A stretch of 64,000 nucleotides of DNA. Source: Candidatus Heimdallarchaeum aukensis (GTDB lineage Archaea > Asgardarchaeota > Heimdallarchaeia > Heimdallarchaeales > Heimdallarchaeaceae). The position numbers were made by a program, and so were the translations under genes. How positions within the stretch are numbered: the stretch's first letter is position 1; each line of letters starts with the position of its first letter. The notes beneath the pieces were generated by a model. That model ran no database searches, was not told the DNA's origin, and was given only the letters and a program-made list of their open reading frames with translations. Location of the stretch: assembly GCA_021513695.1 (NCBI GenBank), contig CP084166.1, forward strand, positions 2,656,001-2,720,000, written 5' to 3'. This document shows positions 3,227 to 23,365 of the stretch, piece by piece.

Positions 3227-3629
3227 ATATATAAAAATAGGAAAAGAAGAAAAAGAATTCATTAGTAAAATAGAAGATATCAGCGGACAGAATCTATATG
3301 CATGTTATCAATGTGGAAAATGTACCGCTGGATGTTCTTTTAGTAATCAGATGGATCTTACAGTAAACCAAGTTATTCATAGATTACAACTTGGGCAAAA
3401 AGAAAAAGTGCTGAGTGCAAAGAGTCCTTGGGTATGTGCGAGTTGTTTGACTTGTACAGTTAGATGCCCACGAGATATTGACGTAGCTGCAATAATGGAG
3501 TCAGTAAGAGAATACATTCTACGTTATGAACCTGAGAGAATAGAAAGAATGAAAGTTACAGGAGAAAAAGCTAAAAACTTGCCTAACATTGCCCTCGTAG
3601 GTAGTTTTAGGAAGAATACTGAATTATAA
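3216..3629 (+). CDS. hdrC: HdrC-like di-[4Fe-4S] protein
   Basis: It carries two ferredoxin-type motifs, CYQCGKCTAGC and CASCLTCTVRCP. It overlaps the upstream gene by 11 nt and directly precedes an HdrB-like gene. Confidence 0.7.
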   Translation: MSFEYIKIGKEEKEFISKIEDISGQNLYACYQCGKCTAGCSFSNQMDLTVNQVIHRLQLGQKEKVLSAKSPWVCASCLTCTVRCPRDIDVAAIMESVREYILRYEPERIERMKVTGEKAKNLPNIALVGSFRKNTEL

Positions 3630-3641
3630 TAGGTGAATTAA

Positions 3642-4532
3642 ATGAAATATTCATATTTTCCAGGATGTAATCTCAAAACAAATGCAAAGGAATATGAACA
3701 TACAGCTGTTGAAGTTTCTAAAATATTAGATGCTGAACTTGTAGAAATGCCAGTGTTTAATTGCTGTGGGACAGTTCATAGTATGGCTTCAGATAATACT
3801 ATGAGGAGAATCGCCCCTGTACGTATTCTTTCAAGATCAGAAGAGCACCAAAAAGAGTTGGAAGATACAAATAACACAGTTGTAACTCTATGTTCCATGT
3901 GTAGTTCAACACTTAAAGTAGTAAATGAAGAAGTAAAAGAAGATGAAGAAATGCTACAGAAAATAAACTGGCAGCTAGAAAGAGATAACTTAAAATATTC
4001 TGGCCATTCGGAAGTCAAACACTATTTAGAAATACTTAGAGATGAAGTTGGTTTTGAAGAAATTGTTAAAAAGGTTAAAAAACAACTTAAAGGAATGAAA
4101 GTTGCTTCTTATTACGGTTGCATGCTGTTACACCCAGATAAAGCTAAAATTGATGACAGCGAAACACCAACAGTGATGGAAACCCTTACCCTTGCACTCG
4201 GAGCAGAAGTAGTTGATTGGCCTTATTTTAAAACTTGTTGCGGTTCTTACCATGTAGTAGACAAAGAAGATATCGTAAACAATCAAATTCTAAAAATAAC
4301 GGAGGGTGCTAAAAAAAGAGGAGCTAATGCTATAATTACTGCTTGTCCTTTATGTGCCTATAATCTTGATAGTCAGCAAGTATTTTTACAGAAAAAAGGA
4401 ATAATAAAAGAAACTATACCTATCTTCTACTTTACTCAACTTATGGCAATAGCTCTAGGAATAAAATTAGAAAATTTTGAAGATCATCATGTAGATCCTA
4501 AACCTTTACTAAAAAGTCTAGGATTAATTTAA
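3642..4532 (+). CDS. hdrB: HdrB-like protein with two CCG cysteine-rich domains
   Basis: It has two CCG-type domains: FPGC...NCCGT...CSMC and YYGC...TCCGS...CPLC. Confidence 0.75.
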   Translation: MKYSYFPGCNLKTNAKEYEHTAVEVSKILDAELVEMPVFNCCGTVHSMASDNTMRRIAPVRILSRSEEHQKELEDTNNTVVTLCSMCSSTLKVVNEEVKEDEEMLQKINWQLERDNLKYSGHSEVKHYLEILRDEVGFEEIVKKVKKQLKGMKVASYYGCMLLHPDKAKIDDSETPTVMETLTLALGAEVVDWPYFKTCCGSYHVVDKEDIVNNQILKITEGAKKRGANAIITACPLCAYNLDSQQVFLQKKGIIKETIPIFYFTQLMAIALGIKLENFEDHHVDPKPLLKSLGLI

Positions 4533-9394: not shown

Positions 9395-10801
9395 TTAGAT
9401 AAAATCTCCCGTTTCTATTTTCTGTGGGAGGTAGAAGTTTGTAATAAATTGTGGGTCACGTGCATTTAATGCTTGTATTTCTGCTTTATAACCTGTATTT
9501 ATTAGGATTTCAAGTTGTTCTTGCCATTTTGGTTTTCTCTTTACGAACTCTTCTTCAAGCATTAACTTTGATCTTCTTATGTCTTTTTGAGTCATTTTGA
9601 TTAGTGCTTCTCTAGGAATATCAAATCCACTTTCAGGTTTTAGATCACTTGGGAGCAAACCTAACCATTTAATATTTGGCACTGCAAGATGGGTTGATTC
9701 GAAACTAAGAGCTTTACTTCCAACGCTATATACTCTCATGATTTCGAATCCGTAAGGGTCAGCATCCATAATGGCAAGAATAGGTAATTGTAAGTCATCA
9801 TTTATTTTCTTTAGAAACTGTCTTGTTGCCATGTCAGGTTGACCTTTAGCTGTAACTAAAATGCTTGGTACATAATCGTAAAAATGGTCTTCTGCTAACC
9901 TGTTAAAAATAGCATCTTTTTCAATAACTAAACAAAATTCAGCATCACTTTCTAAATCTTCGATGTCATCTATATTTGGTGAAATAGCTTTTCCTGAACC
10001 GATAGCTCTACAATCTATAAGATCACCCTTTTCCTTGAATTGTAACTTTCCTACAACAATACCTTTAGACGATGCACTAACATTTAGTGAAGTCCTCGTA
10101 GCTTGTATCATTGCTCCTAAATCTTCAATAAGAGAGTCTGATACTGCTTGTTTCTTAAACGCATTCACATTCATGTAGAAAATATCTCTTTTTGTACTGT
10201 GAATATCACGTGATAGTATGTCATGAAGAAGTCTCATTAATATTGACATTTGTTCAATCGTGCTTACAGAGGATAAACTCCTAAATTGGCGTTCTATCAT
10301 TTGTCTACCAATAAGTACTAATTCTTGTTCTTCATCAAAACCAATATTTCTCTTTCCTCTTGAAGGAATTTTAAAACTAGCTTCATCAGGTTTGTTAAGT
10401 GCTTCATTCAAAAATAATAATGCTGCTTCAACAATTTTATTTTTAGCTTTTTCCGAAGACATTGTTTCTACATTAGTTACACCATAAGGTAACTCATAAT
10501 CCTGCAATAAAGTAAGTTCGTTTCTAAGTTTCCTTATTTTATCAACTGGAACTTTTCTTTTTATTTCAATTCTCATTAATTCTTTCTTAAGAGGATAATT
10601 ACCTAAGGTTTTACCTTTCTCTAGAGGATACCACTTCTTTCCGCTTCTCAAAAAGAGTACAAAAGATCCTTTTTTAAGTTCAAATTCTTCTTGTAATATT
10701 TGAAATAATTCATTTATCTGAATACTGTTATCAAAACTCATTTTTACTTCAGTTGAAGGCAATATTGTTGCATTTTTTACTAAAAAATTATAGTTTACCA
10801 T
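9395..10801 (-). CDS. top6A: DNA topoisomerase VI subunit A (Spo11 family) with N-terminal extension
   Basis: It has the catalytic-tyrosine motif STKRDIFY (Tyr209 by my count), the Toprim Glu in CLVIEKDAIF, and the Toprim DxD in IMDADPYGFEI. At 468 aa it is about 100 aa longer at the N-terminus than the ~370-390-aa archaeal enzymes. Confidence 0.9.
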   Translation of the reverse strand: MVNYNFLVKNATILPSTEVKMSFDNSIQINELFQILQEEFELKKGSFVLFLRSGKKWYPLEKGKTLGNYPLKKELMRIEIKRKVPVDKIRKLRNELTLLQDYELPYGVTNVETMSSEKAKNKIVEAALLFLNEALNKPDEASFKIPSRGKRNIGFDEEQELVLIGRQMIERQFRSLSSVSTIEQMSILMRLLHDILSRDIHSTKRDIFYMNVNAFKKQAVSDSLIEDLGAMIQATRTSLNVSASSKGIVVGKLQFKEKGDLIDCRAIGSGKAISPNIDDIEDLESDAEFCLVIEKDAIFNRLAEDHFYDYVPSILVTAKGQPDMATRQFLKKINDDLQLPILAIMDADPYGFEIMRVYSVGSKALSFESTHLAVPNIKWLGLLPSDLKPESGFDIPREALIKMTQKDIRRSKLMLEEEFVKRKPKWQEQLEILINTGYKAEIQALNARDPQFITNFYLPQKIETGDFI

Positions 10802-10810: not shown

Positions 10811-13800
10811 TCATTTTGTACTCCTTTTTTTGGTTTCAATTTTTGTATCAGCTGAAATTTCATCTAAAGTTGTTTGTTTTGTTCGCTTTGAAGTTGTTGT
10901 TTTCTTTGTTGTTGTACTTGGTCTCTTTGTTTTAGTAGTCGTTGTTTTCTTTGTTGTTGTACTTGGTCTCTTTGTTTTAGTAGTCGTTGTTTTCTTTGTT
11001 GTTGTACTTGGTCTCTTTGCTTTGGTAGTCGTTGTTTTTACAAAAGGAATTGTCTGTTTGATCTTCTTTATATCATTATAAGTCATCTCTAGCTTTCCTT
11101 CAAGCTGAGATGTCGGATAAGCAATAAATTCTCCAATTGTATTAATTCCAAGTGAGTTCAACTTATTTCGTATTTGCTGTTTAACATCTAATTTTTCTAT
11201 TGGCTCTTCTATTAACTTTAGTAATTTTTGAACATTTTTGTTTTTGAAAATATCTTTTCTCTTCGTACGATTATCAGCAAATATCAACTCTTCAAACGAA
11301 GATATCCCTATTTCTTTTAATTTTGATATAATCTCACTGCTCATAAATGGTGTACTTTTCACTATTTGCGTTTTACCCTTCTTTGCAATTTTTAGAGATT
11401 GAGGAGTTAAAGTTGCAAAATAGTTTCTTAACTGCCTTTCTGTTATATTAGTAATTTCAGTCAGTTCGTTAATTTTTGTATTAAAAACATCCCAGAGAGA
11501 ATACTTCTGTTTATGGTATAATTTAAAGATACTGTTTGGTTTATCCTGCATTAGTGCATAGAATGAGTAAATTGGGTATGAAAGAAGTTCTTTTAATGTG
11601 GATATCTGTCTGATTGATAACTCTGTTTGTTCTTTAATTCTCTTATCAGAAACTGATAAATGTATAATGTGGGAATACCCACCGTTTTCCAATATGGATT
11701 TTTCAGTATCTGAAAATAGACCTAAATCTTTAATCCTATAGCTATTTAGTTCTAATTGCTCTTTCACTTTAGTCATGTTAAGAGAGTTAAGAAGTTCAGT
11801 AAATTCTGCACGTTGTTTTTCTGTAAATTTAATCTGTAAATCATCTATATTTTGTAGGAAGAAAAGATCATAAACTTGTTCATAACCTCTTTTTGCTAGT
11901 TGAAAAAGTATATTCTTTTGACGTATAAATAATGCTAATGATGCTCTAAAACAAGAAAGAACATCTTTTACTTTCATGGATAAGTCGCTGATATTTTTCT
12001 CTTCAAACAAAGCAATTAGTTCACCTAATGAATTTATATCATTTTCATTTAGCTCGTTAATTATTTCTTTATCGTTTACAAAATCTATAAGTTTAGAATT
12101 GCTTTGAGATGCTAATGAATCTAGATCATGGAACGGAATTTGAGATAAAAGGTTTTTAAGGACAGTTATGTTTGAAGATTTATTTAATAATAGTAAATCA
12201 TAAACTGTTTTTGTATTACTTTTTAGTAGAAGCCTAAATGTTTCCTTACTCTCAAAGACAAGTGGAAGAGAGTAAATTTTTTGTTCAATTCTTAAACGGA
12301 GTTTTTCCGTGATCTTCCATCTCTTTGAAGTTTTTGATTTTGATACAATATTAAACACGTAAGCCTCTTCTATAGAGAAAATGTGACCTTGACTTAAAAC
12401 ATCTAATTCAGTTTTATCCAAAATTGTTTCAGGAATGGGGGTTAACTTAGATGCTAGAGTACGTAATGTTTCTAGTGATAGATTTCGAATCTGACGTATT
12501 AGTCTATTATCGTCGATTATCTGACTTAACTGGTATCTAGGTTTTAAAATTAAATCTCCTATTGTTAAGTTGCCATATTGTTTGAATTTCTCTTTATTTT
12601 CAAAACTTTCATTGACTAGCAAAATAACATGCCTATTTAGAAATTGTAAGTATTCATTAAAGTGTAAAGTTATGGTCTCTGGGAAAGAACTTGTAATTTT
12701 GTCAAATTGCTTTTTATCATATTTCTCCAAGAGAAGTAAGGATTCAAGGGTATATTGGACTTTTAGTTCATCTTTTTCAGGAAGATTCAACTTTTCTTCG
12801 AATTTGGTTGGTTTTGAGAAAATAAATGAGTAAATATCAAGTAGTCTCTTGGATACTTGAGAATTTACTTTTAGAGAATCATGATGTATATTGAAGAAAA
12901 CTAATTGTTGAAAACTTAAGTCTGGGAGTTTTTCGTCAAAATATCGCGAAGAGAGTTTTTGTAAAAGTCCAATTTTTGTTCTTAATGAAGGTGAAAGGTT
13001 AGAAACAACATCAGTGTTTTCAAAGAGATCAAGATAATTCTTAATACCATTTTCTCTCAATTCAGCAATATCAAAATCTTGTAGAACAATGTTTGTTTTT
13101 AGAGCAGGGGGGTTGCTTATTCTAGAAATAGTAATCTTACTAAGAAAAGTGTCAACTTCACTAATGTTTGTGCTTATAATTTTTGCAAGAGCTGGCTTAG
13201 ATAACAAAAGCATTTCTTGTAGAGTACTTACTTTGGATAAAAGTTTTAACCAATTTTCGAGAGGAAGTTGTGGGAAAGAAATCAGATAAATAGATTTGTT
13301 TAATATCTTTTGAACATTATTTCGTAATTTACTTCTCAATTTACAGTGTTTTTTTGATAAATCATAAACCAAATCGTCAATAACTGTATAATATTTCAGT
13401 AATTTTTTCTTTGTTTCACTATCAAACAGCATAATATTGGAAAGTTGAACTCTTTTATCTCTCAATTTTTTAATTGTTTTAACATTCAAAGTTGAGAGAA
13501 CATGATTAACTTTCTCAAGTTGTTTTTCTGATAAGAATGAAGAATATGAAATAGGTTTAATTAGTAAATCCTTTAGTGTTTCGATTTTATGTTCATTCAG
13601 TTTTTCTACTTCTTTTTCAGTGAAATCTGTTATTATAGAGACAGAACTGTTAAGGAGGTTTAGAATCTCTAATCCTGTTTTAGTAAGAAACTCTTTGTTC
13701 ATGTATAAAACAGAAATAAAATCAATGATATTTGAGATCTCTGGAATTTCAATGTTTTTGCTGAATAAGTTTTTTGAATTAATAGTACCAAGAAAATCTT

Positions 13801-16800
13801 TTGTCTTTAACGTAAGAGATAATGTTTTCTTTTTATCTTTAATCAGATTACTAATTATGGTGTTATAATCACCAAAGCTGACTAGTTGATCGTTTTTAAC
13901 AAGATCTCTGATGGTGAAAAGATTGTTGTCAAAGTATTTTGTTTCAATCTCTTCAAATTTTAAGGAGTTAATAGAGCTTAAGAATAGGATTGATGTATCT
14001 AAAATTTGTTTTATTTTTGTTCTTATTTTTTCTATCTTTTTAATATCATAAAGCCAGTTGTATATTGAATTCTCTTCTAAATCTGAAAAACTATAGAATC
14101 CATAAGATAACAAAGTAGATTTTTCTTTTTCACTAAGAAATGGTAAATCTACAAAATGATTTGGCTTATCTTTTTCAATTGTTTTCTTGATTTTATCAAT
14201 CTTTATTGATGAGCGTAGTTTCAATATTTGATCAAGTTTAATCCTTGATTCTTTTGCGACTGTTTTATACGGAATAAGCAGTAGATCTGCGATAGTGTAT
14301 GTTCCACCTTTTTTAAGGTTAGTTTCTATTTTCTCTTCTAGTCCTAAATATCGAATATTGGCTAGTAAATATGGGCTAATTTCTGCAAATATGCTCTTAT
14401 CTTTTAGATTAACATCTCCAAGTAATTCTTGATAAGATAAGTACCCAAGTTTCATTGCTTTTTCTTCATATGAACCTAAAGGAGGAATAAAACTTTCAAG
14501 ATGTAGATTTTTTAACATTGATAGACTTGATAAAATTTCATCAACCATTGCATCATCTAGATTTTGGATAGAGGAAATAACATCTATAATGTAAACTAAC
14601 TTCTTGTTATAACAAGATTTTATTGTATCTAATGTCAATATAGGTAGATTGTTTATGTTTCTACTTAATTTCATTCTAATATCTTTAATTTCTTCAATGT
14701 ATGAATCTGGTAGGCTTAAGAAAAACTCTTCAGGGAAGTAATATAGATATTCAATTGAGAAAACTCCCAAACTGTATAGCTTTTGAACTAATGACTTATT
14801 TAACTTTAAGTTTGCAATATCAAGAGTAGAGAATTGAAGGGAAGATAGATTCCTAATGAAAAGAGAATTGTTCTCTTTTATGGCTTTATCCAATTTTGGG
14901 AGAAGGGTTTCCCACAGGTGAATAGGAATATGAAGGTAGTCATAATATGTTTTTTTATTTTTTAAAGATTCATTAATATTTTTTGTTGAAATCCCGAGTA
15001 TACGCTCAATTGTCTTTATTGGTGTAAAGAGAATAGGTATATTCACTATCAACTTTTCTTTTTCATCTTTGTTTATTTCTAATTGATCTACATCATGATA
15101 AAATAGTTGAATTAAAGAGTAAATCTCATTTTCATTAAGATATTCGATTGTAGAAACCTCGGGTTTTTTGATTGTTTTTGGACTAGTACCTTCTTTAGCT
15201 TCACGTTTTTTAATAAGTGGAAGTTTACCCTCTTTTGTTAGTTCTTTTTCAGTTAAGGATGGTAAAAGGTTTAAGTCGATTCCATAGAGTTTAAGTTCAG
15301 AAACAATATTTCTTTTACTAATCTGTAATTTAATAGTGTTTATCTCTTTATACTCTATTTCAAATAATTTACCCAAAGAAACTGATGGAATAGATAAAAA
15401 TTCAAGTATAGTGTTAATCTTATTTTCAAAGAGAATAGAGTTTTGTTGCAATGAAAGTGAACTTAAGAAGGAAATTGGAGTTGTTCCAAACAATGAGAGA
15501 GTCTTTTTTATTGATGATAAATTCTTATCTTCTGAACTGTAATCCTGTAAACAAAGAAGTTGATCTAAATACTCAATATTAATCTTTTTTAGATATAGCT
15601 TCTGTTGTTTGGACAAAAATTTTACATCACGTAACTTAATTGCCCATTTAGGTATTTGAAAATCAGATAAAGAACTTACTACATATTCTGCTAGTTCTAT
15701 GTCAATATTGTCTGGAGGAAGAAGTAATAAATCAAGAATAAGTTTTTTATCTTCCTTCATCAAATTTCTCAAAAACTCAAGCTGATCTATTTGAGAAAAT
15801 TTATCTAACCAAATAATTGGATATTTTACCATACTTGTAAGAGAATTAGAATTACTAAAGAGAATTTGAGAACTTATGACAAATGGTTGAGGAAGCAGAT
15901 CTAGTAGATTAATAACATCGGGAGAGGTCTTAATGTCTAGTTTATCACTTTTATTTGATAGAATGTCCAGATGATCTTTGGGAATTAAGTTAACTAATTT
16001 TTCTTTAGAAAATTCTTTTACAAAACGGATAATCTCACTTCTAGCATTTGATGGAATAGTTCTCTTTTCTTCAGAGCTAAGAGTAAGAAGTTCAATAATA
16101 TTTTTAACTCCATTTTTCCATAAATCAAGTTTGACGTCTAAACTCATGTCTGAGATAGAAAAAATATTTAGACATAAACCATAGATTAGTTCTTCAAGTT
16201 TAGCAATACTACTCGCTTTTTCTATTTTTTCACTTTCTGAGAATATAAGCAAGTATTCTGGTACCAACCCAAAGATATCTTCAAATGATGCTTTTGAAAG
16301 GTTGAATTTAAAGTCTGTGAGTGTACTTATTAATTCTTTATCTTCTTCAAGAATAGGTATGCCTGAACTAAGGCTTATGTTTCCCTTTCTTTTATCTTTT
16401 AACTCTTCAGGAATGGAATTGAATATCTTCTTAAGATCTTTTTCTCTAACTATAAAGAGGTCAATAACTCGTAGAATGCGGTTTTTTGCAAGACTACGTT
16501 TAATAAAGCGTGAAAGGTTTGAAATTCTGAAGACTGAAGAGTTACAAAGAGAGAGAAAATTATCAATATTTTCCTTAAATTCTTCAGAAAATGATTTTAT
16601 TTGATAACAAAGACCATAAAGATCTTGAACTGTGTCCTTATTCAGTTTTTGTAAGCTAAGAAGATTTCTCTTTGACAATAACGCAAGAGATTCAAGTTTT
16701 ATTCCTTTTTCTTCAACTTCATTTAGTATTTTTTTAACTGAAATATTTTCTTTTATTTTGATAATTTCAGTTTCAGGTATGTCTAAAATTAATGATATCG

Positions 16801-19800
16801 TAGTGATGTCTTCTGTTAAGAAGGTGAGTATATCCCCGACGCCAGAATAAACAAGTTTTAACATTTGTTCTAACTCTAAATCCAAGAAGAATACAGATGA
16901 GAGATACAACTTTGCTTCTTTAAATACATTCATGTTCACTAGATATGGGTATGATTTTCTGATTTCAGACATTCTAGAAATGAAGTCTTGAATTGAATAA
17001 ATCCCTAATTCATGTAATTTTTCTACATATTCACTTGTTATTGATGGACAATTTTCTAGAGGAATTGCAAAACGAAGTCTTTTCTCTTTTAATTCATCTA
17101 AAGATAACAAGTCAAATATATGAAATTCATCATAAATAGGATTGTTTAGAATTTGTGATAATTGTCCTTTTTCAAAAAGAGACAAATCGATTACTGAGTG
17201 AATATCCTGTAATTCTAGTTTCTTTATTTCTTCAAAAGACAAGAAACTAAGAAAAGTTATTGAACCTGATAATATTTCTTTAAATTCTCTATATTTCTCT
17301 TGCTTTAAGATACTGGATGCACCCATTCTTACTCCAGCATAGTACAAAGTTTCTATGTCTGATATTCCTATATCTCGTAATTTAGAAATTTCAGTTTCCG
17401 TGATGAGAGAAGAAGGCATAATAGGGTGAGATCTTGCTTTGTGTAATTCAACAATTTCACTATAAGATAGATTTTCCTTTATTTCATTAATCCTTTTTTG
17501 TGTTTCATTAGATATTTCAGAAAGTTTTTTGGTTGGTGTTGAATAAAAGTCTATTAATGTTGTAATTGAAGATCTGCTAAGAGGAAGAGCAAGATTAACG
17601 TCCAAGTTTAGTGAAGAAATAGGAATAGACAAATCACCTATAAGTTTATCTAAACTATTTTCTTCACCTAGTTTGTTTTTAATTTCCAAGAGAGGAGAGT
17701 TCTCCTCGAATTCAAGTTCAAATAAGCTCCCTAAAGTAATTATAAAGTATTTATTCCTCATATCTTCACTTAAAAGATTGAGAAAAGGTGTAATTCCAAG
17801 TGGTAATTCAAAAACTGAACGAATAAGTGTAATGTTACATTTTTCAAAAGCTAATTGTCTTTCAAATTCGCTGAGGGTTTTTATCAAATCTGTGCTGGAA
17901 ATAACATCAAGTAATGTTAACTCTTCAATATCTTCCAGAATAGTAGAAAAGAAGTCTTTATTGTAAGCAGTTGCAGAAAGAAAATCAAAGTAGTGATAAG
18001 CTCTCAAGTCAATTAATTTAGAAGAATAGTCTGAAACAGTTCTAAATAGCGTTCTATCCGTTAAATCGCTATCTAATATGAATATTAAATGGTAAAGGTG
18101 GGTTATTTGGTTTTGATTAAAAATAGTCAAAGAATAATCTGAAATCTCCTGAAAAATCCGTAAAGGAAGTGATAATATTTTCTTTAATGTGAAAACTTTT
18201 CTCCAGATTGATGAGTTTCTGTCGATGAAAACTTCATCGGGACAGTAGAAAAGTTCTTGAATTGATTGAAATCCTTCATAACTGTAAATTGTTTCTCTAC
18301 TTAGCGTTCTTTGTTCATTTTTGTCAAAAAGTCTAGTTTCATATGCATAGATTGCTCGCGCCTCATATTCTTCTCTTATTCTCTGTGATGTTAAAATGTC
18401 AATTATTTCCTTTGTTTCTTTTGTTGTAATGTTTAGGATATTACTGAGTTTAACAGATGAAGTAGAAACGAAATCAACTATAGTTAATATACCCGCTTTT
18501 CTCAATTCTTCAGTTTGTGAAAAAGAGATATTTGGTAAGAAATAAACAGGGAGACTGAAAAAGTAAAAAATTTCACCAAGATCTAGACTTCTCTTAATAT
18601 TATCAAAACGTTCGTCGGGAATCCCTGTTCTTTCCATTAGAACTTTAGATGACGTAAGTAGAAAACCTAACAATGTATTTATTTTGTTTTTCTTTAAGAG
18701 CTTAATTATATCTGGATCTAACATGTCTGACAAGTGCTTAAATCGTAAATTTAGCACATTTTTTAAATTCTGAACTATCTCCCATGGAATTGTTCTTATT
18801 GCCCATTTTTCTTGCTGAGTAGAAAAGTATAGGTCCTCAATGGTAAAGATGTTGTTAGTTTCTAAAATTTCTACTATCGATGGTCTAAAGATATCAAGTT
18901 CAGAAATATCTGTTCCAGTTTCACTAATCCTGATATTTTTCTTGTATTTTTTAGCTTCTTCTAAATCAATTTTTAAAATAGAAGCGATTGTTTCATCACT
19001 AACAAGGAAAAAGTCAATGATTCTTCTGATTCCAGTTTTTCTTAGAGCATTCAGCTGTTCATGGGATAAGCTTGTTATTTCAATTTCTTCAATTTCTTCC
19101 TCTTGTTTTGTTTCTTCATTTAATATCTTCTTCTTTGTGGTTTTTTCCCAAGTAACTAGCGTCAGGGGAGAACGCAATAGTTTCTTGAATTTTTCAATTA
19201 CACCCCATTTTATTATGGGAGCACCAAAAGTGTAAGGGTGTGTTAAATAAAATAGCTGGTCTATAGAATTGTAACCAATAACAAGTAAAGAACGGATTTC
19301 TTCAGGTGAAAAACGTTCTGAATTTTCAAAATCAAAGGAGATTATTGATTCATACTTACCACTAGATACTTTCTCGTAGAATGGTTGTCCATCTCTATTT
19401 ACATCAAAATTGTTTATTAACTCATCAAAATTCTTCTTTGAAAAATTAAGTATCGTGCTTAATTCATCAAAACTGTAATTTAAAAATTGGTGCAGAGAGT
19501 AAATCTTTTTTGAAGCTAATACTTCATAATCTTTAAGTTTCAAGCTTTTTATACGAGTGATTGGTAATTGCAAAAACTGATAGAAATCAATTATTTCGTG
19601 AGATAACAAAACTTTTTCTGCAAACTCATCAGTATCTTTAAGATTTTTACTATTTATATTGTCGTAGAGTTCAAGTAAAATTTTTTTGTCTTTATTTTTT
19701 GAAATTTCTGTCTCAATAAATACAGGTGTAAGTTGAAGGAAATCTCTTATTGTATTTACATCCTTGGTTTTGAGCTTAAGAAGAGCATCATTCAATGACT

Positions 19801-22800
19801 TTGCTTTAGATTTTGTTGGGGCTAACTTTGCTAAAAATATTAGATCTTCATTCATGAATTCTCTAAAGTTATTCATCTTAGTTAAAAGATCTGAAATCGA
19901 CGGAAGTTCTTCTTCAATATAAAAGTAAAACAACTCTTGTATTGTTGTTTGTTGTTCATTGAATTGCTTAACCAATCTTGGAAAGTGTTTTTTTATTATT
20001 TTTAAATTTCCTTTGTATCTTTCTTTATTTTTTGTAATCTTGTTAGCAGATATACTTTGTTTTAGACGTATAATTTCTTGTTCGTTAAGGTTTAATACCA
20101 AAGAGAGTTCTTTATTACTCCATATTAGAAACCTGCCTATACAGTTTACTCCAATTTCATTCAAAACGTTAATTTTCTCGTTTAGTTCAGGAAAAGCAAA
20201 AATCAAGGGAGTTCGTAATAGTAAGTAATCTGAAACATATTGTTTCTTTGTTTGTTCATCTTTAAATTCAAAATTCTCTGGTTGAGAATATAGAATGTCC
20301 TCTACTGTATAAATTTCATATTTACTTGCTTTGTTCTTCAAAGATAGAAAGTTAGGAATGGGCGTACCTATCTTTTTCTTTATTCTTGCAATCTCGCTTT
20401 TTAATAAACCCATTTCGCGTAATTTTTTCGATGGTGTAATCAAGAATGATGTGGAAGTAAATATCTTGTTTTCTAGCAATTTTTCTTCAGCTTTTTCACT
20501 AATCACTTTTAAGTGTGATAGGTCAAGGTCTTTATTTACTTCATTAAGATGAGAAAGAATGCGAAACTTTGATTCTTCTAATAGACTATCAACAAAAACA
20601 CTTAGTTCTTTTTTCATTAACGTTCTTAATTTAGCGTTTGCATATTGTGCTAAGGTTTCTATATTCGCTGATTTAAGACTGTCTAGTATGTTTTTTCTTA
20701 TATTGTCATCTATGGTTGATATTAGTCCTAGTTTGTTAAGAGGGATAGATCTCTCGCTGTTAGCTAGAATAGTGAAAAATCTAGTATAAATAGAACGCTC
20801 TAATTCTTTGATTTCTAAAAGGTCTTTAGTTGGCGTTTTAAGAAAATTATCTATTGTCTCTATCTTTCTTCTATGAAAAGCATTTTTAGAATATCCATCT
20901 ATCCAATCAGGTTTCATTTTTGTAATGTTGACCTTTAGAAAATCAGGAAACTTTTCTGAAACATGTGAAAATACCTTTTTAACGTAATCAATCAACATTT
21001 CTGTTAAATCATTATCATATTTAAACGAAAAAGGCTCATTGAACTTATAAATAAAATCCTCTAACCCCTTAAACTTATTTGAAAAGTTGGGATAACTTGT
21101 TTTTATATAATTGAAATCTGGATACAGAAATTCTTCTTTTAACTCTGAATAATCAGACATAGTTTCTAAATTAAATTTAAATTCTTCGATAAAGATCGAC
21201 AACTCTACTGTTTCTTGGCCATCTTGAGATTTTGTAACTTCGTTAATTAGCTTAAATTTGTTATCTTCTATTAGACGTTCTACTAAACCTTCAACTAAAC
21301 GCAATTGTGTAGCTTCTGTAGCTAAATAATGATAGCTATTTTGAATCCATCTTTGATATAATGCTTCATTGAAACTACTACTAGTTCCTTGACGTGCAAA
21401 CCTCTTATCTATCATTTTATTTGTTAATGCTTTTAGTGGGAGTTCAGGGCTCAACTTAGACCTGTCTAGTTCATAAATTGTTCTTTGTTTTATTCTTGAA
21501 ACTTCTTTTTTTGAAAGATTCAAAATAGGAGCTAGTTCTGAAACAGGTATGGAAAGAAACTTTCCAATTGTTAAAATATCACTTTTAGCACAACTTTTCT
21601 TGTATTTATCAGGGCACCACACATTAAGTTCAAAAATGGGTGTCCCTAAAGGAACAAAATTTCTAATTTTCTTTTTTGCTCCGTGAGCTAGAGCTGCTGC
21701 AACTTTATATTTTTCTTTATTTATGTTTGTATAAACTATTTTTTCATTCTCTAAAATTCTTGCGAGGTTATCAATTACAACAGGTGCTGATCGTACAAAA
21801 CGGGATAATCGTGCATGTTCTCTTTTCCTTCTTTTTGCTCTACTAAGGAATGTTTTAAGTCTTCTACCAAGTTGTTGTAAAGCTAACCTAATCTCTTCTT
21901 CAATTTCTGGGACGGTTGAGATATACTCCTTACTCGTTTCAGGAAAAGGTATTTTTGTACTTACAATTGATACTGCAATCGCGAGAGGATCTGATTGTCT
22001 TGTAAGACCGTATTCACTCCAATTAAGCGAAGAAACTACTTTTGTAATAACGTCATTTCCCGCACCAAAAATTAAAGGAATTCTATTTGCATATCGATAA
22101 ATTATTTTGTTGTCGACTGACGTGCTTCCTTTTTGTTGAGCATATTTTGATACTCCCCCCCCATAACCTATTGCTGCTTCAACGATAAAAGGATGACCAG
22201 AATAAGCTTTTGGAGGACGAGAAATCGCTTCTACAAACTCTGGTTCAAGTTCTTTTTCTAAACCTTTTCTTAATCTTGCTGCTCCTAAAGGAGAAAGAGC
22301 ATCACCTTGTGGAGCATCAAATCTAAAGATTCTATCTCTTTTTCTTTTTATTTCTTTAGCCTCTTGGTAGGCTTTGATAAATCCTTCATGAACTATTCTT
22401 CTAATTTCTTTAGAAGTAAGGTCGCTAGGCTTTTTATTAGGGTCAATTTCTAAAATCTGAAAGAACTCTTCAGCTACTTCTTTTCTTACTCCCATAAAAT
22501 CTTTTGACAGAAAATCAACTAGATTTTCTGCAGAAGTAGCAGCAATTTTTGCTTTAAACTGAGTGATATCACATCCAAATGGGTGTAACTGAATTACTTT
22601 AGGAGGGTCGGGCATATCATCTACTACTTTTTGGAAAACTAATGTTTCACTTGTTCCTTCTTCATCTCCTGGAAGAACTACAGTAAAACTTGCATAGGGA
22701 GTAATTATAGCTAATTGTTTAAAATACTCCTTAATACTGTTCTTTGCTAGATTCCAAGCTCCAGTAAAAGTTATACTTATCTCAGTACCGCTAGTGTGCA

Positions 22801-23365
22801 AATATCCTGGGTCATCTGGATTATATTCGTGTTGTTCCATAATAACAGGTTCATTTTTTTCCAAGTTGATCATTAAATGAACTTCTGTAGTCATTTCTTC
22901 CATGAAGTATCTGCTCTTTATCCTTGCAGGAAGATCTACAGATGACATAGAATGTAGTAGACACATCTTGGCTCCTAAACCAAATCTGCCTCTAGTTTGA
23001 ATTACTCCATATTTTGTTCCTGTTAATACTCTACCAAAAAGATTTGGAATCTCATGACCAGGAACACCTACACCGTTATCTCTACATGTTAACTGAAGAA
23101 AATCAAGATGTTTTTCTAACTGTTTATATCTGGTAATATCTAATAATTCATTAATTTCAGAACTTGATAACTTCCTTAATTCAATATATATTTCAGGGTT
23201 CACACCTAGTTTTTCTGCTGCATCTAAGCCATTCTCGACCAATTCTCTAACAGAGGTAAAAACAGCTCGCATCGAGTTGCCAAAACCTGCAATGGCCTTA
23301 TTTTCATTGAAGAAAGCAGCTGCACTCATTTTTCGTGTTTTATTTTCTTCAGCCACAAAATTCAC
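10811..23365 (-). CDS. top6B: giant DNA topoisomerase VI subunit B fusion protein (Top6B core + ~3,500-aa HhH-like repeat array + basic K/T-rich tail), 4,184 aa
   Basis: This is a single uninterrupted 12,555-nt ORF. The N-terminus is colinear with Top6B: FFNENKAIAGFGN..RAVFTSVRELVENGLDAA (Bergerat N-box), RDNGVGVP (G1), TRGRFGLGAKM (G2), HPFIVEAAIGYGGG and YRYANRIPLIFGAGNDV (transducer). The start is uncertain. The track's GTG 23365 lies inside the AAGGAGTG SD-like string, so GTG 23356 (8 nt after GGAG) or ATG 23329 are more plausible. Confidence 0.9.
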   Translation of the reverse strand: MNFVAEENKTRKMSAAAFFNENKAIAGFGNSMRAVFTSVRELVENGLDAAEKLGVNPEIYIELRKLSSSEINELLDITRYKQLEKHLDFLQLTCRDNGVGVPGHEIPNLFGRVLTGTKYGVIQTRGRFGLGAKMCLLHSMSSVDLPARIKSRYFMEEMTTEVHLMINLEKNEPVIMEQHEYNPDDPGYLHTSGTEISITFTGAWNLAKNSIKEYFKQLAIITPYASFTVVLPGDEEGTSETLVFQKVVDDMPDPPKVIQLHPFGCDITQFKAKIAATSAENLVDFLSKDFMGVRKEVAEEFFQILEIDPNKKPSDLTSKEIRRIVHEGFIKAYQEAKEIKRKRDRIFRFDAPQGDALSPLGAARLRKGLEKELEPEFVEAISRPPKAYSGHPFIVEAAIGYGGGVSKYAQQKGSTSVDNKIIYRYANRIPLIFGAGNDVITKVVSSLNWSEYGLTRQSDPLAIAVSIVSTKIPFPETSKEYISTVPEIEEEIRLALQQLGRRLKTFLSRAKRRKREHARLSRFVRSAPVVIDNLARILENEKIVYTNINKEKYKVAAALAHGAKKKIRNFVPLGTPIFELNVWCPDKYKKSCAKSDILTIGKFLSIPVSELAPILNLSKKEVSRIKQRTIYELDRSKLSPELPLKALTNKMIDKRFARQGTSSSFNEALYQRWIQNSYHYLATEATQLRLVEGLVERLIEDNKFKLINEVTKSQDGQETVELSIFIEEFKFNLETMSDYSELKEEFLYPDFNYIKTSYPNFSNKFKGLEDFIYKFNEPFSFKYDNDLTEMLIDYVKKVFSHVSEKFPDFLKVNITKMKPDWIDGYSKNAFHRRKIETIDNFLKTPTKDLLEIKELERSIYTRFFTILANSERSIPLNKLGLISTIDDNIRKNILDSLKSANIETLAQYANAKLRTLMKKELSVFVDSLLEESKFRILSHLNEVNKDLDLSHLKVISEKAEEKLLENKIFTSTSFLITPSKKLREMGLLKSEIARIKKKIGTPIPNFLSLKNKASKYEIYTVEDILYSQPENFEFKDEQTKKQYVSDYLLLRTPLIFAFPELNEKINVLNEIGVNCIGRFLIWSNKELSLVLNLNEQEIIRLKQSISANKITKNKERYKGNLKIIKKHFPRLVKQFNEQQTTIQELFYFYIEEELPSISDLLTKMNNFREFMNEDLIFLAKLAPTKSKAKSLNDALLKLKTKDVNTIRDFLQLTPVFIETEISKNKDKKILLELYDNINSKNLKDTDEFAEKVLLSHEIIDFYQFLQLPITRIKSLKLKDYEVLASKKIYSLHQFLNYSFDELSTILNFSKKNFDELINNFDVNRDGQPFYEKVSSGKYESIISFDFENSERFSPEEIRSLLVIGYNSIDQLFYLTHPYTFGAPIIKWGVIEKFKKLLRSPLTLVTWEKTTKKKILNEETKQEEEIEEIEITSLSHEQLNALRKTGIRRIIDFFLVSDETIASILKIDLEEAKKYKKNIRISETGTDISELDIFRPSIVEILETNNIFTIEDLYFSTQQEKWAIRTIPWEIVQNLKNVLNLRFKHLSDMLDPDIIKLLKKNKINTLLGFLLTSSKVLMERTGIPDERFDNIKRSLDLGEIFYFFSLPVYFLPNISFSQTEELRKAGILTIVDFVSTSSVKLSNILNITTKETKEIIDILTSQRIREEYEARAIYAYETRLFDKNEQRTLSRETIYSYEGFQSIQELFYCPDEVFIDRNSSIWRKVFTLKKILSLPLRIFQEISDYSLTIFNQNQITHLYHLIFILDSDLTDRTLFRTVSDYSSKLIDLRAYHYFDFLSATAYNKDFFSTILEDIEELTLLDVISSTDLIKTLSEFERQLAFEKCNITLIRSVFELPLGITPFLNLLSEDMRNKYFIITLGSLFELEFEENSPLLEIKNKLGEENSLDKLIGDLSIPISSLNLDVNLALPLSRSSITTLIDFYSTPTKKLSEISNETQKRINEIKENLSYSEIVELHKARSHPIMPSSLITETEISKLRDIGISDIETLYYAGVRMGASSILKQEKYREFKEILSGSITFLSFLSFEEIKKLELQDIHSVIDLSLFEKGQLSQILNNPIYDEFHIFDLLSLDELKEKRLRFAIPLENCPSITSEYVEKLHELGIYSIQDFISRMSEIRKSYPYLVNMNVFKEAKLYLSSVFFLDLELEQMLKLVYSGVGDILTFLTEDITTISLILDIPETEIIKIKENISVKKILNEVEEKGIKLESLALLSKRNLLSLQKLNKDTVQDLYGLCYQIKSFSEEFKENIDNFLSLCNSSVFRISNLSRFIKRSLAKNRILRVIDLFIVREKDLKKIFNSIPEELKDKRKGNISLSSGIPILEEDKELISTLTDFKFNLSKASFEDIFGLVPEYLLIFSESEKIEKASSIAKLEELIYGLCLNIFSISDMSLDVKLDLWKNGVKNIIELLTLSSEEKRTIPSNARSEIIRFVKEFSKEKLVNLIPKDHLDILSNKSDKLDIKTSPDVINLLDLLPQPFVISSQILFSNSNSLTSMVKYPIIWLDKFSQIDQLEFLRNLMKEDKKLILDLLLLPPDNIDIELAEYVVSSLSDFQIPKWAIKLRDVKFLSKQQKLYLKKINIEYLDQLLCLQDYSSEDKNLSSIKKTLSLFGTTPISFLSSLSLQQNSILFENKINTILEFLSIPSVSLGKLFEIEYKEINTIKLQISKRNIVSELKLYGIDLNLLPSLTEKELTKEGKLPLIKKREAKEGTSPKTIKKPEVSTIEYLNENEIYSLIQLFYHDVDQLEINKDEKEKLIVNIPILFTPIKTIERILGISTKNINESLKNKKTYYDYLHIPIHLWETLLPKLDKAIKENNSLFIRNLSSLQFSTLDIANLKLNKSLVQKLYSLGVFSIEYLYYFPEEFFLSLPDSYIEEIKDIRMKLSRNINNLPILTLDTIKSCYNKKLVYIIDVISSIQNLDDAMVDEILSSLSMLKNLHLESFIPPLGSYEEKAMKLGYLSYQELLGDVNLKDKSIFAEISPYLLANIRYLGLEEKIETNLKKGGTYTIADLLLIPYKTVAKESRIKLDQILKLRSSIKIDKIKKTIEKDKPNHFVDLPFLSEKEKSTLLSYGFYSFSDLEENSIYNWLYDIKKIEKIRTKIKQILDTSILFLSSINSLKFEEIETKYFDNNLFTIRDLVKNDQLVSFGDYNTIISNLIKDKKKTLSLTLKTKDFLGTINSKNLFSKNIEIPEISNIIDFISVLYMNKEFLTKTGLEILNLLNSSVSIITDFTEKEVEKLNEHKIETLKDLLIKPISYSSFLSEKQLEKVNHVLSTLNVKTIKKLRDKRVQLSNIMLFDSETKKKLLKYYTVIDDLVYDLSKKHCKLRSKLRNNVQKILNKSIYLISFPQLPLENWLKLLSKVSTLQEMLLLSKPALAKIISTNISEVDTFLSKITISRISNPPALKTNIVLQDFDIAELRENGIKNYLDLFENTDVVSNLSPSLRTKIGLLQKLSSRYFDEKLPDLSFQQLVFFNIHHDSLKVNSQVSKRLLDIYSFIFSKPTKFEEKLNLPEKDELKVQYTLESLLLLEKYDKKQFDKITSSFPETITLHFNEYLQFLNRHVILLVNESFENKEKFKQYGNLTIGDLILKPRYQLSQIIDDNRLIRQIRNLSLETLRTLASKLTPIPETILDKTELDVLSQGHIFSIEEAYVFNIVSKSKTSKRWKITEKLRLRIEQKIYSLPLVFESKETFRLLLKSNTKTVYDLLLLNKSSNITVLKNLLSQIPFHDLDSLASQSNSKLIDFVNDKEIINELNENDINSLGELIALFEEKNISDLSMKVKDVLSCFRASLALFIRQKNILFQLAKRGYEQVYDLFFLQNIDDLQIKFTEKQRAEFTELLNSLNMTKVKEQLELNSYRIKDLGLFSDTEKSILENGGYSHIIHLSVSDKRIKEQTELSIRQISTLKELLSYPIYSFYALMQDKPNSIFKLYHKQKYSLWDVFNTKINELTEITNITERQLRNYFATLTPQSLKIAKKGKTQIVKSTPFMSSEIISKLKEIGISSFEELIFADNRTKRKDIFKNKNVQKLLKLIEEPIEKLDVKQQIRNKLNSLGINTIGEFIAYPTSQLEGKLEMTYNDIKKIKQTIPFVKTTTTKAKRPSTTTKKTTTTKTKRPSTTTKKTTTTKTKRPSTTTKKTTTSKRTKQTTLDEISADTKIETKKRSTK
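10883..11035 (-). repeat. 45-bp tandem repeat encoding the (KRPSTTTKKTTTTKT)n basic tail of the giant ORF
   Basis: Plus-strand copies at 10911-10955 and 10956-11000 are identical 45/45. Flanking copies (11001-~11035 and ~10883-10910) are diverged. The protein reads TTTTKAKRPSTTTKKTTTTKTKRPSTTTKKTTTTKTKRPSTTTKKTTTSKRTKQTT. Confidence 0.9.
11048..21730 (-). repeat. protein-level array of degenerate ~60-70-aa helix-hairpin-helix units (RNA polymerase alpha-CTD-like / RadA N-domain-like) within the giant ORF
   Basis: The recurring pattern is P-h-x-x-L.....L...G-I/V-x-T/S-h-x-D/E-h-h...S..-L..IL.h...E...I. Examples are LRKAGILTIVDFVSTSSVKLSNILNITTKETKEIIDIL, LNEIGVNCIGRFLIWSNKELSLVLNLNEQEIIRLKQSI, LRKTGIRRIIDFFLVSDETIASILKIDLEEAKKYKKNI, LKKNKINTLLGFLLTSSKVLMERTGIPDERFDNIKRSL, LKEIGISSFEELIF and PIEKLDVKQQIRNKLNSLGINTIGEFIAYPTSQLEGKLEMTYNDIKKIKQTI (last unit, nt 11048-11203). 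I recognised roughly 35-45 units by eye. The repeats are degenerate at the DNA level. aa ~640-890 look non-repetitive and aromatic-rich. Confidence 0.6.
21731..23365 (-). other. portion of the giant ORF corresponding to a canonical Top6B (GHKL ATPase, H2TH, transducer), aa 1 to ~545
   Basis: The motifs listed for the parent CDS apply here. The last recognisable Top6B-like helix is EIRLALQQLGRRLKTFLSRAKRRKREHARL (aa ~491-520, nt ~21806-21895). The domain boundary is approximate. Confidence 0.75.

Follow-up and report, generated by a model that had tools for sequence, protein, structure and literature searches.

Within a 64,000-nucleotide (nt) stretch of Candidatus Heimdallarchaeum aukensis DNA (contig CP084166.1, positions 2,656,001 to 2,720,000; here called the window), we identified a gene for a giant B subunit of DNA topoisomerase VI (Topo VI), Top6B, about 8 times as long as normal. 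The complete open reading frame (ORF) specifies 4184 amino acids (aa) plus a stop codon and lies at 10811 to 23365 on the reverse strand, as do all the features of this protein described below. It consists of a Top6B catalytic core (aa 1-545; 21731-23365) with a GHKL ATPase, an H2TH region, and a transducer; an extension (aa 546-4106; 11048-21730) made of about 45 to 50 five-helix units of the (HhH)2 type, where HhH is helix-hairpin-helix, resembling the RAD51 N-terminal domain (RAD51-N) and the C-terminal domain of the RNA polymerase alpha subunit (alpha-CTD); and a basic low-complexity tail. Intact orthologous ORFs of 4148 to 4305 aa were found in 11 other genomes. An initial annotation, made from the letters of the window, had described the extension as a very long HhH array of the kind carried by Methanopyrus kandleri topoisomerase V (Topo V), and its boundaries for both the extension and the last unit (aa 4055-4106; 11048-11203) were correct.

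The ORF is that of a Topo VI B subunit. Its first ~540 aa aligned end to end with residues 5 to 488 of S. shibatae Top6B (2zbk_B; E 4.7e-88), and the core likewise matched M. mazei Top6B (2q2e_B; E 7.9e-67). Pfam recognized the transducer (Topo-VIb_trans, 3.5e-57, 193 bits, aa 352-518). The GHKL ATPase stretch (aa 38-135) scored 21 bits against HATPase_c, below the cut-off of 26.4, as it did in several relatives. In the 2zbk_B alignment the ATP-binding motifs of the Bergerat fold were intact (N-box ELVENGLDA, G1 DNGVGV, G2 GRFGLGAK) and the switch-lysine segment PKAYSGHPF was present, PKAYSGHPFIVEA pairing with the S. shibatae switch-lysine segment. Because the core aligned in full with 2zbk_B, aa 546 (nt 21730) marks the true end of the canonical enzyme.

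Every defining feature that we tested was present apart from one lysine. At the position of the transducer WKxY motif, which senses DNA and is conserved and functional but does not define the family, the 2zbk_B alignment showed WSEY (aa 449-452; 22010-22021). The lysine was absent from 46 of 57 extension-bearing Top6B homologues compared with 43 of 108 short ones, counts that ignore kinship, and WK was retained in the Hodarchaeales-type forms of 2300 to 2400 aa. Loss of the lysine may reflect a trade-off between a DNA contact in the core and the appended array.

The catalytic partner is encoded alongside. Top6A (468 aa; 9395-10801, reverse strand) begins 9 nt past the Top6B stop codon and has both the 5Y-CAP and Toprim parts (Pfam TP6A_N, 3.6e-19; TOP6A-Spo11_Toprim, 2.4e-59). 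The giant protein probably serves as the B subunit of the topoisomerase VI at work in this organism, its gene being transcribed together with that of Top6A. In Top6A, the TP6A_N domain begins at aa 182 of 468; canonical archaeal Top6A proteins are ~370 to 390 aa long, and hence the protein has ~100 aa of additional N-terminal sequence. As for the start of Top6B, the listed GTG codon at 23365 yields VNFVAEENKTRKMSAAAFF, and orthologs and relatives align from about MSAAAFF. Translation may therefore begin in fact at the ATG of codon 13.

To find the repeats of the extension, we seeded a hidden Markov model (HMM) from the last unit alone and iterated it on the protein itself. This full-unit HMM converged on 20 "full" units of 52 aa scoring 25 to 54 bits; the best score in 50 shuffles of the extension was 5.1 bits. 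A second HMM, covering the first hairpin and the aromatic D/E-L-F/Y-Y ending, added 18 "short" units. Once one overlapping pair that represented a single unit with an insertion had been merged, 37 confident units remained. Because iterated self-profiles are circular, we ran two independent tests. In half-protein cross-validation, an HMM made from one half of the protein found 9 and 16 units in the other (at 3 bits or more) against a background of 0.06 to 0.08 units per shuffled sequence, a total of 25 where ~0.1 would be expected. An HMM made solely from the units of ~1100-aa Top6B relatives in other Asgard archaea found 15 units in the window protein compared with 0.02 in shuffled sequence. 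The periodicity is thus far above chance.

Further units emerged where the HMMs were weak or silent. An AlphaFold2 model of aa 470-1120 showed three extra HhH-like helix groups (aa ~644-715, 732-805, and 887-942), and profile matches gave three more candidates (aa 1741-1770, 3377-3414, and 3943-3996). Alignment of the ortholog alignment to the unit profile with hhalign, which is partly circular, contributed few units. With 8 units per 547 aa in the modeled segment (~68 aa per unit), extrapolation over the extension gives ~50. The array therefore comprises diverged ~55-aa five-helix units, 37 of them confident and at least 6 more, about 45 to 50 in total. The initial annotation had recognized 35 to 45 units by eye and left room for ~50, which agrees with this count.

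We computed column statistics from 444 unit sequences (37 units in each of 12 orthologs). Hairpin 1 reads G (48%), I (62%), any residue, T/S (63%), hydrophobic (97%), any residue, D/E (61%), L/F (96%), and then a hydrophobic residue. Upstream of its glycine the profile has a hydrophobic residue, two variable positions, and L, then L followed by K or any residue, K or any residue, and a variable position; a second, looser element reads S/P...L..IL...hxxhK..L, where h is hydrophobic. The consensus proposed earlier, P-h-x-x-L followed by G-I/V-x-T/S-h-x-D/E-h, holds as such a profile, but the literal motif G-h-x-[TS]-h-x-[DE]-h occurred only 6 times (0.07 expected) and a relaxed form 13 to 14 times (~0.7 expected). 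The repeat is a profile-level feature, and the literal motif is rare. The two flavors of unit said to alternate are real sub-families, each unit finding its best matches within its own kind, but the alternation is loose: in 11 of 17 cases the unit after a short one was full. Nor are the short units truncated: they aligned with full units over the whole ~55 aa and differed in a more divergent second hairpin. Pairwise identity among units was ~15 to 20%. We looked for block duplications through the offsets of best-matching units and saw no pattern, so the history of the expansion is unrecoverable by that route.

The unit has an HhH-type fold. In a Pfam scan of the whole protein, RAD51D_N reached 61.5 bits (8.8e-17; curated cut-off 27.3) and RNA_pol_A_CTD 27.7 bits (2.3e-6; cut-off 23.8), and none of the HEAT, TPR, Arm, or other solenoid families matched. 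Single units matched weakly, 6 of 38 for each of the two families at E<0.1. When a profile of the 38 units was compared with all PDB sequences, HhH regions alone headed the list (E 0.005 to 0.8): the thumb of Dpo4-like Pol IV, RpoA CTDs, RAD51C-N, Brr2 Sec63, NusA acidic repeats (AR), and RAD51-N. Against the E. coli alpha-CTD, hhalign gave an E value of 0.0019 and reproduced the register that the initial annotation had given. The likeness claimed to the N-domain of the RadA encoded in the window was in register too, but weak (E 0.014).

Structure prediction agreed with these matches. For aa 470-1120 (18-sequence alignment), AlphaFold2 returned a recurring helix-hairpin-helix pattern with a predicted local distance difference test score (pLDDT) of 82 and a predicted template modeling score (pTM) of 0.67. 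For aa 1420-1720, with three homologues, pLDDT was 58; confidence was confined to the pair of full units at aa 1542-1661, and no short unit was resolved. Those two confident units superposed on RadA (1pzn) at 1.4 Å over 50 residues, and also on the N-domains of RAD51 and RAD51C and on alpha-CTD. Each is a five-helix domain with two helix-hairpin-helix elements. From the Pfam, PDB, hhalign, and AlphaFold2 results, the unit is a five-helix, two-hairpin SAM-like fold closest to RAD51/RadA-N and alpha-CTD, and assignment of the units to the RAD51-N / alpha-CTD branch of the HhH/SAM-like fold is a supported structural interpretation. A HEAT/TPR-like alpha-solenoid is ruled out, since the fold matches are to RAD51-N, alpha-CTD, and SAM and no solenoid family was found.

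For individual units we give full-unit HMM scores for full units and first-hairpin HMM scores for short ones, unless labeled otherwise. The modeled segment at aa 470-1120 (20006-21958) opens with the long transducer helix and continues with 8 HhH-like helix groups. Full units with modeled helices lie at aa 574-628 (21482-21646; 49.6 bits), 811-865 (20771-20935; 39.2 bits), 949-1003 (20357-20521; 39.3 bits), and 1055-1109 (20039-20203; 46.8 bits), with a short unit at aa 1004-1058 (20192-20356; 19.0 bits). The degenerate units at aa ~644-715 (21221-21436; model helices 175-246) and ~732-805 (20951-21172) were seen in the AlphaFold2 model only, and the unit at aa ~887-942 (20540-20707) scored weakly and was backed by the model.

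Farther along, full units lie at aa 1185-1239 (19649-19813; 24.9 bits), 1269-1323 (19397-19561; 42.7 bits, and 10.1 bits by the relatives' HMM), 1427-1481 (18923-19087; 49.8 bits), 1542-1596 (18578-18742), and 1607-1661 (18383-18547; 50.1 bits, and 24.7 bits by the relatives' HMM; pLDDT 80 to 91). The unit at aa 1542-1596, found by Pfam and the full-unit HMM (pLDDT 70 to 80), holds the best RAD51D_N stretch (aa 1544-1592). Short units lie at aa 1124-1178 (19832-19996; 15.2 bits), 1349-1403 (19157-19321; 24.8 bits, 15.2 cross-validated), 1487-1541 (18743-18907; 26.9 bits, 14.6 cross-validated), and 1685-1739 (18149-18313; 21.5 bits). A possible degenerate unit at aa 1741-1770 (18056-18145) was matched weakly by the first-hairpin HMM and hhalign.

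The middle of the array starts with a full unit at aa 1913-1967 (17465-17629), found by Pfam and the full-unit HMM, which coincides with the best RNA_pol_A_CTD stretch (aa 1911-1967). Other full units here are at aa 2103-2157 (16895-17059; 45.1 bits, and 17.9 bits by the relatives' HMM), 2157-2211 (16733-16897; 42.5 bits), 2278-2332 (16370-16534; 38.6 bits), 2401-2455 (16001-16165; 45.2 bits, 12.2 cross-validated), and 2631-2685 (15311-15475; 46.0 bits, 21.2 cross-validated). Short units are at aa 1985-2039 (17249-17413; 20.7 bits), 2036-2090 (17096-17260; 22.2 bits), 2227-2281 (16523-16687; 20.1 bits), 2578-2632 (15470-15634; 21.1 bits), and 2852-2906 (14648-14812; 23.1 bits, 13.1 cross-validated). 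The stretch at aa 2729-2806 (14948-15181), which the HMMs split in two, is the single unit with an internal insertion. The ortholog alignment also placed a 31-aa K/E-rich insertion at aa 2708-2738 (15152-15244).

Toward the C terminus, full units lie at aa 3003-3057 (14195-14359; 40.5 bits), 3242-3296 (13478-13642; 37.9 bits, 10.8 cross-validated), and 3756-3810 (11936-12100; 33.4 bits), and the array ends with the full unit at aa 4055-4106 that had served as the earlier example (54.4 bits, 20.5 cross-validated). Short units occupy aa 3074-3128 (13982-14146; 21.8 bits), 3422-3476 (12938-13102; 19.2 bits), 3580-3634 (12464-12628; 24.5 bits), 3646-3700 (12266-12430; 19.7 bits), 3812-3866 (11768-11932; 18.7 bits), 3881-3935 (11561-11725; 20.5 bits), and 4002-4056 (11198-11362; 28.2 bits). 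An additional unit at aa 3943-3996 (11378-11539) was found by hhalign and the relatives' HMM, and a possible degenerate one at aa 3377-3414 (13124-13237) was matched weakly by the full-unit HMM and hhalign.

We then searched the contigs of one genome per species and found 19 loci. All were labeled Heimdallarchaeota except for one Thorarchaeota and one "uncultured archaeon." Among them were Heimdallarchaeota AB_125 and Ca. Heimdallarchaeum endolithica PR6, whose genome is closed (CP084167.1) and whose probe region was 94% identical. Every locus with sufficient sequence carried an uninterrupted ORF of 4148 to 4305 aa, giving 11 full-length copies. Identity among orthologs was 75 to 77% in the core and 36 to 38% in the extension, of which ~3516 of 3560 positions were alignable; the copies were collinear. 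The extension had undergone ~24 indel events, mostly of 1 to 5 aa, none of them within aa 1335-2316, and no unit had been gained or lost. By far the largest indel in the array, the 31-aa K/E-rich insertion, was confined to the lineage of the window and H. endolithica. Counterpart units in different orthologs were 36 to 50% identical, compared with ~15 to 20% between different units of one protein. Unit number and linker lengths are near-invariant across Heimdallarchaeaceae, and the individual units have kept distinct identities. The ratio of nonsynonymous to synonymous substitution rates (dN/dS) for the window against H. endolithica was 0.015 in the core and 0.087 in the extension, ranging from 0.05 to 0.17 in successive 500-aa segments of the latter. 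A search for tandem repeats at the DNA level found none inside the array, the sole strong one being a 45-nt repeat in the tail.

Because the ORFs are intact, dN/dS is low, and DNA-level repeats are missing from the array, we conclude that the array is old, translated, under purifying selection throughout, and position specific. A nonfunctional origin, whether a runaway selfish repeat, an assembly or annotation artifact, or a generic alpha-solenoid, might be suspected from the low-complexity look of the protein (L, K, I, S, and E make up 54% of residues), the 28 to 30% G+C content of the region, and the weak per-unit Pfam matches. These suspicions are refuted by an ORF found in a complete genome and 18 other metagenome-assembled genomes (MAGs), its low dN/dS, the fixed number of units across orthologs, and matches to RAD51-N, alpha-CTD, and SAM but to no HEAT, TPR, or Arm family. 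An assembly artifact or a noncoding reading is ruled out by the 19 genomes, the ortholog alignment, and dN/dS, and a recent expansion by the lack of DNA-level repeats inside the array. A domain count frozen over deep divergence would imply a demanding function in chromosome handling.

Shorter versions of the same array occur more widely among Asgard archaea. An exhaustive HMMER search with aa 300-1499 against 1.84 billion representatives retrieved extended Top6B proteins of 2197 to 4341 aa, whose named members were "Asgard group," Hodarchaeales, and Thorarchaeota MAGs, including one 2967-aa protein labeled Thorarchaeota; in GenBank the giant forms are labeled merely "DNA topoisomerase VI subunit B" (e.g., NPD87881.1, 4170 aa). 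A word-indexed search added partial proteins from Kariarchaeaceae, LC_2, and Hodarchaeales and a large set of ~1100-aa Asgard Top6B proteins. The precomputed Pfam domains of this set were HHH_5, RAD51D_N, IMS_HHH, TfoX_C, Cdd1, and alpha-CTD; we confirmed one ~1100-aa form directly (HHH_5, 3.8e-25), and relatives also matched IMS_HHH and the Pol-lambda fingers HhH families. Arrays of all grades begin at aa ~560 to 590 and reach the C terminus. Counts with the unit profile were 5 to 7 in proteins of ~1100 aa, 17 to 25 in those of 2200 to 3000 aa, ~20 in those of 3500 to 3900 aa, and ~34 in those of 4200 aa. The window protein is thus no isolated case: the trait is graded and runs through the Asgard clade, with this protein at its long extreme.

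The word-indexed search, which covered 5.8 billion proteins, yielded members of this family of up to ~1200 aa only, and the H. endolithica ortholog, at 94% identity, was not among them; with a 791-aa piece of the extension as the query, it found only three partial homologues. Both the longer proteins and this ortholog were recovered by the scan of genome contigs and the exhaustive HMMER search. We attribute this poor retrieval to the selection of candidates by shared words, which is swamped by a composition of this kind. Giant, low-complexity-like proteins appear to be under-retrieved by the word index.

The tail (aa 4107-4184; 10814-11047) consists of the 78 residues after the last unit and is rich in K, T, R, and P (net charge +20, isoelectric point [pI] 11.3). 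A 45-nt tandem repeat at 10892 to 11038 (3.3 copies, 97% match) encodes its TKTKRPSTTTKKTTT repeats. Equally basic tails of the [ST]PKK or AKPK type were present in all full-length orthologs and in the relatives of 3000 to 3900 aa, built differently (PTKKPTKK, KAKPKAKP, or TTTKK repeats) and variable in length; the [ST]PKK/AKPK repeats are like those of histone H1 tails. Differences in tail length account for most of the disparity between the 4184 aa of the window protein and the 4305 aa of its H. endolithica ortholog, and because its length varies, the tail is the only fast-evolving part of the gene, resembling a variable-number tandem repeat. Within it, a K/R-Q-x-T-L-(L/M)-D motif, identified by ortholog comparison (KQTTLDEI at aa 4163-4170; 10856-10879), was kept in every full-length ortholog with a recovered C terminus except one (L020). 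This KQxTL(L/M)D sequence may be a short linear docking motif. It is not a canonical PIP box, since it has QxxL and lacks the aromatic pair in all orthologs.

We favor the view that the array's arms hold Topo VI on DNA through sequence-independent HhH contacts, a view that draws on analogy with Topo V. In the A2B2 enzyme, two arms of ~3600 residues each would project from the distal ends of the transducers, near the A subunits and the DNA gate. They would make many weak contacts, indifferent to sequence, between hairpins and the phosphate backbone, and the proximal and distal thirds of the array, which are more basic, would strengthen this hold together with the histone-H1-like tail. The enzyme would thereby be tethered to long stretches of DNA or to histone-bound DNA, which would raise the local concentration of the second duplex so that crossings and catenane nodes could be captured and passed processively. 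This would be the role that (HhH)2 arrays have in Topo V, arrived at independently on a type IIB enzyme. Since Heimdallarchaeia also encode gyrase (PMC9348778), such a tethered Topo VI could be specialized in decatenation and chromosome-scale work, not in general supercoil relaxation.

As points in favor of association with DNA, we counted the tail and the two ends of the array, proximal at aa 546-1145 and distal at aa 2946-4145, with pI values given as 8.8 to 9.8 for the two together and, listed separately, as above 9 for the proximal part and 7.9 to 9.8 for the distal part. A longer list of observations weighs against this view. The array as a whole is neutral, with a net charge of +5 in its 3561 aa (orthologs range from -89 to +39), the mean unit charge is +0.5, and its middle (aa 1146-2945, 1800 aa) is acidic, with a pI of 4.8 to 6.1. 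K/R did not exceed 48% in any unit alignment column, and the positions corresponding to the DNA contacts of the E. coli alpha-CTD, which we take to be R265, N268, G296, K298, and S299, were variable. The hairpin-1 glycine was replaced by N, K, or S in the sequences that lack it, just over half of the 444, and the hairpin-2 glycine was mostly lost; such glycine-poor hairpins are typical of RAD51-N, alpha-CTD, and SAM-like variants, unlike the classic HhH. SAM interaction domains matched the units almost as well as RAD51-N did. Hodarchaeales are the named members among the ~2300- to 2400-aa forms, which end in an HhH unit without a basic tail. Finally, the near absence of indels and the pTM of 0.67 suggest a defined, possibly rigid architecture more than a flexible, DNA-wrapping chain.

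The same facts lend themselves to a protein scaffold, the chief alternative, in which SAM/RAD51-paralog-N-like modules would pack into a rod or superhelix, rigid and of set length, to which partners dock or which associates with itself. Topo VI would thus be positioned in a larger assembly with replisome, SMC, segregation, or cell division partners, and DNA would be touched only by the tail and perhaps the end units. Besides a charge that is neutral to acidic, the lack of any conserved basic column, the lost glycines, the SAM matches, and the scarcity of indels with the pTM just mentioned, a scaffold would account for the distinct surface of each unit, conserved between orthologs, and for the conserved short linear motif in the tail. 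It is harder to reconcile with the nearest sequence families (RAD51-N, alpha-CTD, and, in relatives, HHH_5 and IMS_HHH), which are DNA-binding HhH modules, with a host enzyme that works on DNA, and with the DNA binding of Topo V, the earlier example of a topoisomerase with tandem HhH domains. No partner is known, and besides Top6A we saw no conserved neighboring gene. We regard the scaffold as possible but doubtful.

If the ~50-domain array were a rigid, length-defined arm and not a loose DNA-binding tail, Topo VI might act as a structural component of the Heimdallarchaeial chromosome, which we think rather unlikely. Equally speculative is the detail that its RAD51-N-like units dock on histone-bound DNA or partner proteins, with the H1-like tail anchoring the distal end. 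Were this so, the enzyme would play in these archaea the part that Topo II plays in the chromosome axis of eukaryotes, and decatenation would be physically coupled to the organization and segregation of chromosomes in the prokaryotes most closely related to eukaryotes.

The Topo V precedent raises one more alternative, namely, that some units carry catalytic lysines and act as apurinic/apyrimidinic (AP) and deoxyribose phosphate (dRP) lyases, making the protein a combined topoisomerase and repair factor. Three (HhH)2 domains of Topo V are AP/dRP lyases (PMC4838376), the units are lysine rich (10.7% K), and the matches of relatives to the IMS_HHH and Pol-lambda fingers families point the same way. 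We obtained, however, no alignment with the lyase domains of Topo V and saw no resemblance to them in sequence, and no lysine column was invariant across units, and a lyase would leave the need for ~50 units unexplained. This second activity, which would be compatible with the tethering of Topo VI to DNA, is very improbable.

The gene sits in an ordinary chromosomal neighborhood that encodes glutamate dehydrogenase, pyruvate kinase, aldehyde:ferredoxin oxidoreductase, a hydrogenase subunit, RadA, and a thermosome-like chaperonin. Directly upstream of Top6B on the same strand, at 23504 to 26440, lies a gene for a 978-aa protein with an LVIVD repeat match (9.7e-9); we saw no functional link between it and the topoisomerase. 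Elsewhere in the window, a 379-aa ORF (30959-32098, forward strand) scored as a Tubulin/FtsZ-family GTPase at 31.3 bits, just under the Pfam cut-off of 33, and is preceded by a 436-aa ORF (29638-30948, forward strand) with no Pfam match. The two may be a divergent tubulin-superfamily pair.

Heimdallarchaeia are the archaeal group placed closest to eukaryotes by phylogenomic work, and among prokaryotic enzymes it is their Topo VI that is most closely related to eukaryotic Topo VI and Spo11 partners. With a B subunit of ~480 kDa, the heterotetramer would exceed 1 MDa. The graded Asgard series (~6, ~20, and ~50 units) constitutes a natural experiment on array function, and the units, taken singly, are small and have well-folded predicted structures. 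HhH domains of Topo V have been used to render polymerases salt tolerant and processive (PMC8313265, PMC7490695), and given that use, HhH arrays such as this one may have practical value.

Among known systems, the protein has in common with canonical Top6B (S. shibatae 2zbk_B and M. mazei 2q2e_B) a core homologous over its full length and an operon with Top6A. It differs in length (4184 aa against 470 to 620 aa) and in having WSEY in place of the transducer WKxY. M. mazei Top6B, which has an Ig-like CTD, shows that an extra C-terminal domain is possible; here an HhH array stands instead. The Asgard Top6B proteins of ~1100 aa (e.g., P0193) and 2200 to 3900 aa (e.g., P0023, Hodarchaeales; P0016, labeled Thorarchaeota; P0162, Kariarchaeaceae) are true homologues with the same family of units, but they have 5 to 25 units against the ~45 to 50 here, and the ~1100-aa forms keep canonical GLG hairpins.

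As single domains, the N-domains of RAD51/RadA and RAD51 paralogs, the RpoA alpha-CTD, and the NusA AR are the best matches to the units in sequence and structure, with five helices and two hairpins. To our knowledge, these domains occur singly or in pairs on the recombinase, RNA polymerase, and NusA and never in arrays of dozens. The RpoA alpha-CTD proper shares the register of the units, but its contact residues are not conserved here and there is no alpha N-terminal domain. Accessory DNA-binding elements also set substrate preference and localization in other type II topoisomerases, namely, the beta-pinwheel of GyrA/ParC, the basic CTD of eukaryotic Topo II, and BIN4/RHL1 in plants. They follow the same functional logic, but their folds are unrelated, their scale is far smaller, and none is a tandem HhH array. 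DNA binding by BIN4/RHL1 is cited in PMC9665070.

Extensions of Asgard Top6B have been noticed before. Villain et al. (2022; PMC9348778) reported lineage-specific C-terminal extensions, or a "globular domain," in Asgard Top6B, found gyrase in Heimdall-, Kari-, and Hodarchaeota, and argued that C-terminal extensions of Top6B arose in gyrase-bearing archaea as Topo VI specialized. The distribution of the longest arrays fits that link, despite the 2967-aa protein labeled Thorarchaeota. A table in Brinkmeier et al. (2022; PMC9665070) marks a CTD as present in Asgard TopoVIB. Wu et al. (2022; PMC8813620) list Asgard proteins of more than 3000 aa with their CDD domains in Extended Data Fig. 7b. In the searchable literature, that figure aside, we found no description of the HhH nature of the extension, of the repeat structure, or of forms of more than 4000 aa. 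The giant HhH-array Top6B architecture thus seems not to have been described in print.

The most instructive comparison is with Topo V, regarded as the only topoisomerase that consists of a catalytic domain plus a tandem HhH array, whose (HhH)2 domains wrap DNA and serve as a processivity factor (PMC9489208). M. kandleri Topo V, a type IC enzyme with 12 tandem (HhH)2 domains, shares the plan of a catalytic module followed by a C-terminal array of ~50- to 60-aa two-hairpin domains. The catalytic domains are unrelated, type IIB GHKL-transducer here against type IC there; the window protein had no Pfam match to the N-terminal catalytic domain of Topo V, and its N terminus is Top6B. The units here are of the RAD51-N / alpha-CTD type, and a Topo V HhH Pfam family matched 1 of 38 of them (E 0.043). 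The array has ~4 times as many domains, is neutral with degenerate hairpins, is followed by a basic tail, and showed no lyase signature; neither the type of (HhH)2 repeat nor the spatial arrangement of the domains is that of Topo V. The initial annotation had proposed an independent, Topo V-style acquisition, and what stands of this is convergence. The likeness to Topo V is one of architecture only, not of homology, the multidomain arrangement differs, and the trait is shared across the Asgard clade and is not specific to this organism. A functional analogy is plausible. The enzyme and the type of domain are each known, and their combination was otherwise known only from Topo V. The solution of a catalytic domain joined to an HhH array recurs here on an unrelated, ATP-dependent type IIB enzyme at 4 times the scale, and that scale is unprecedented.

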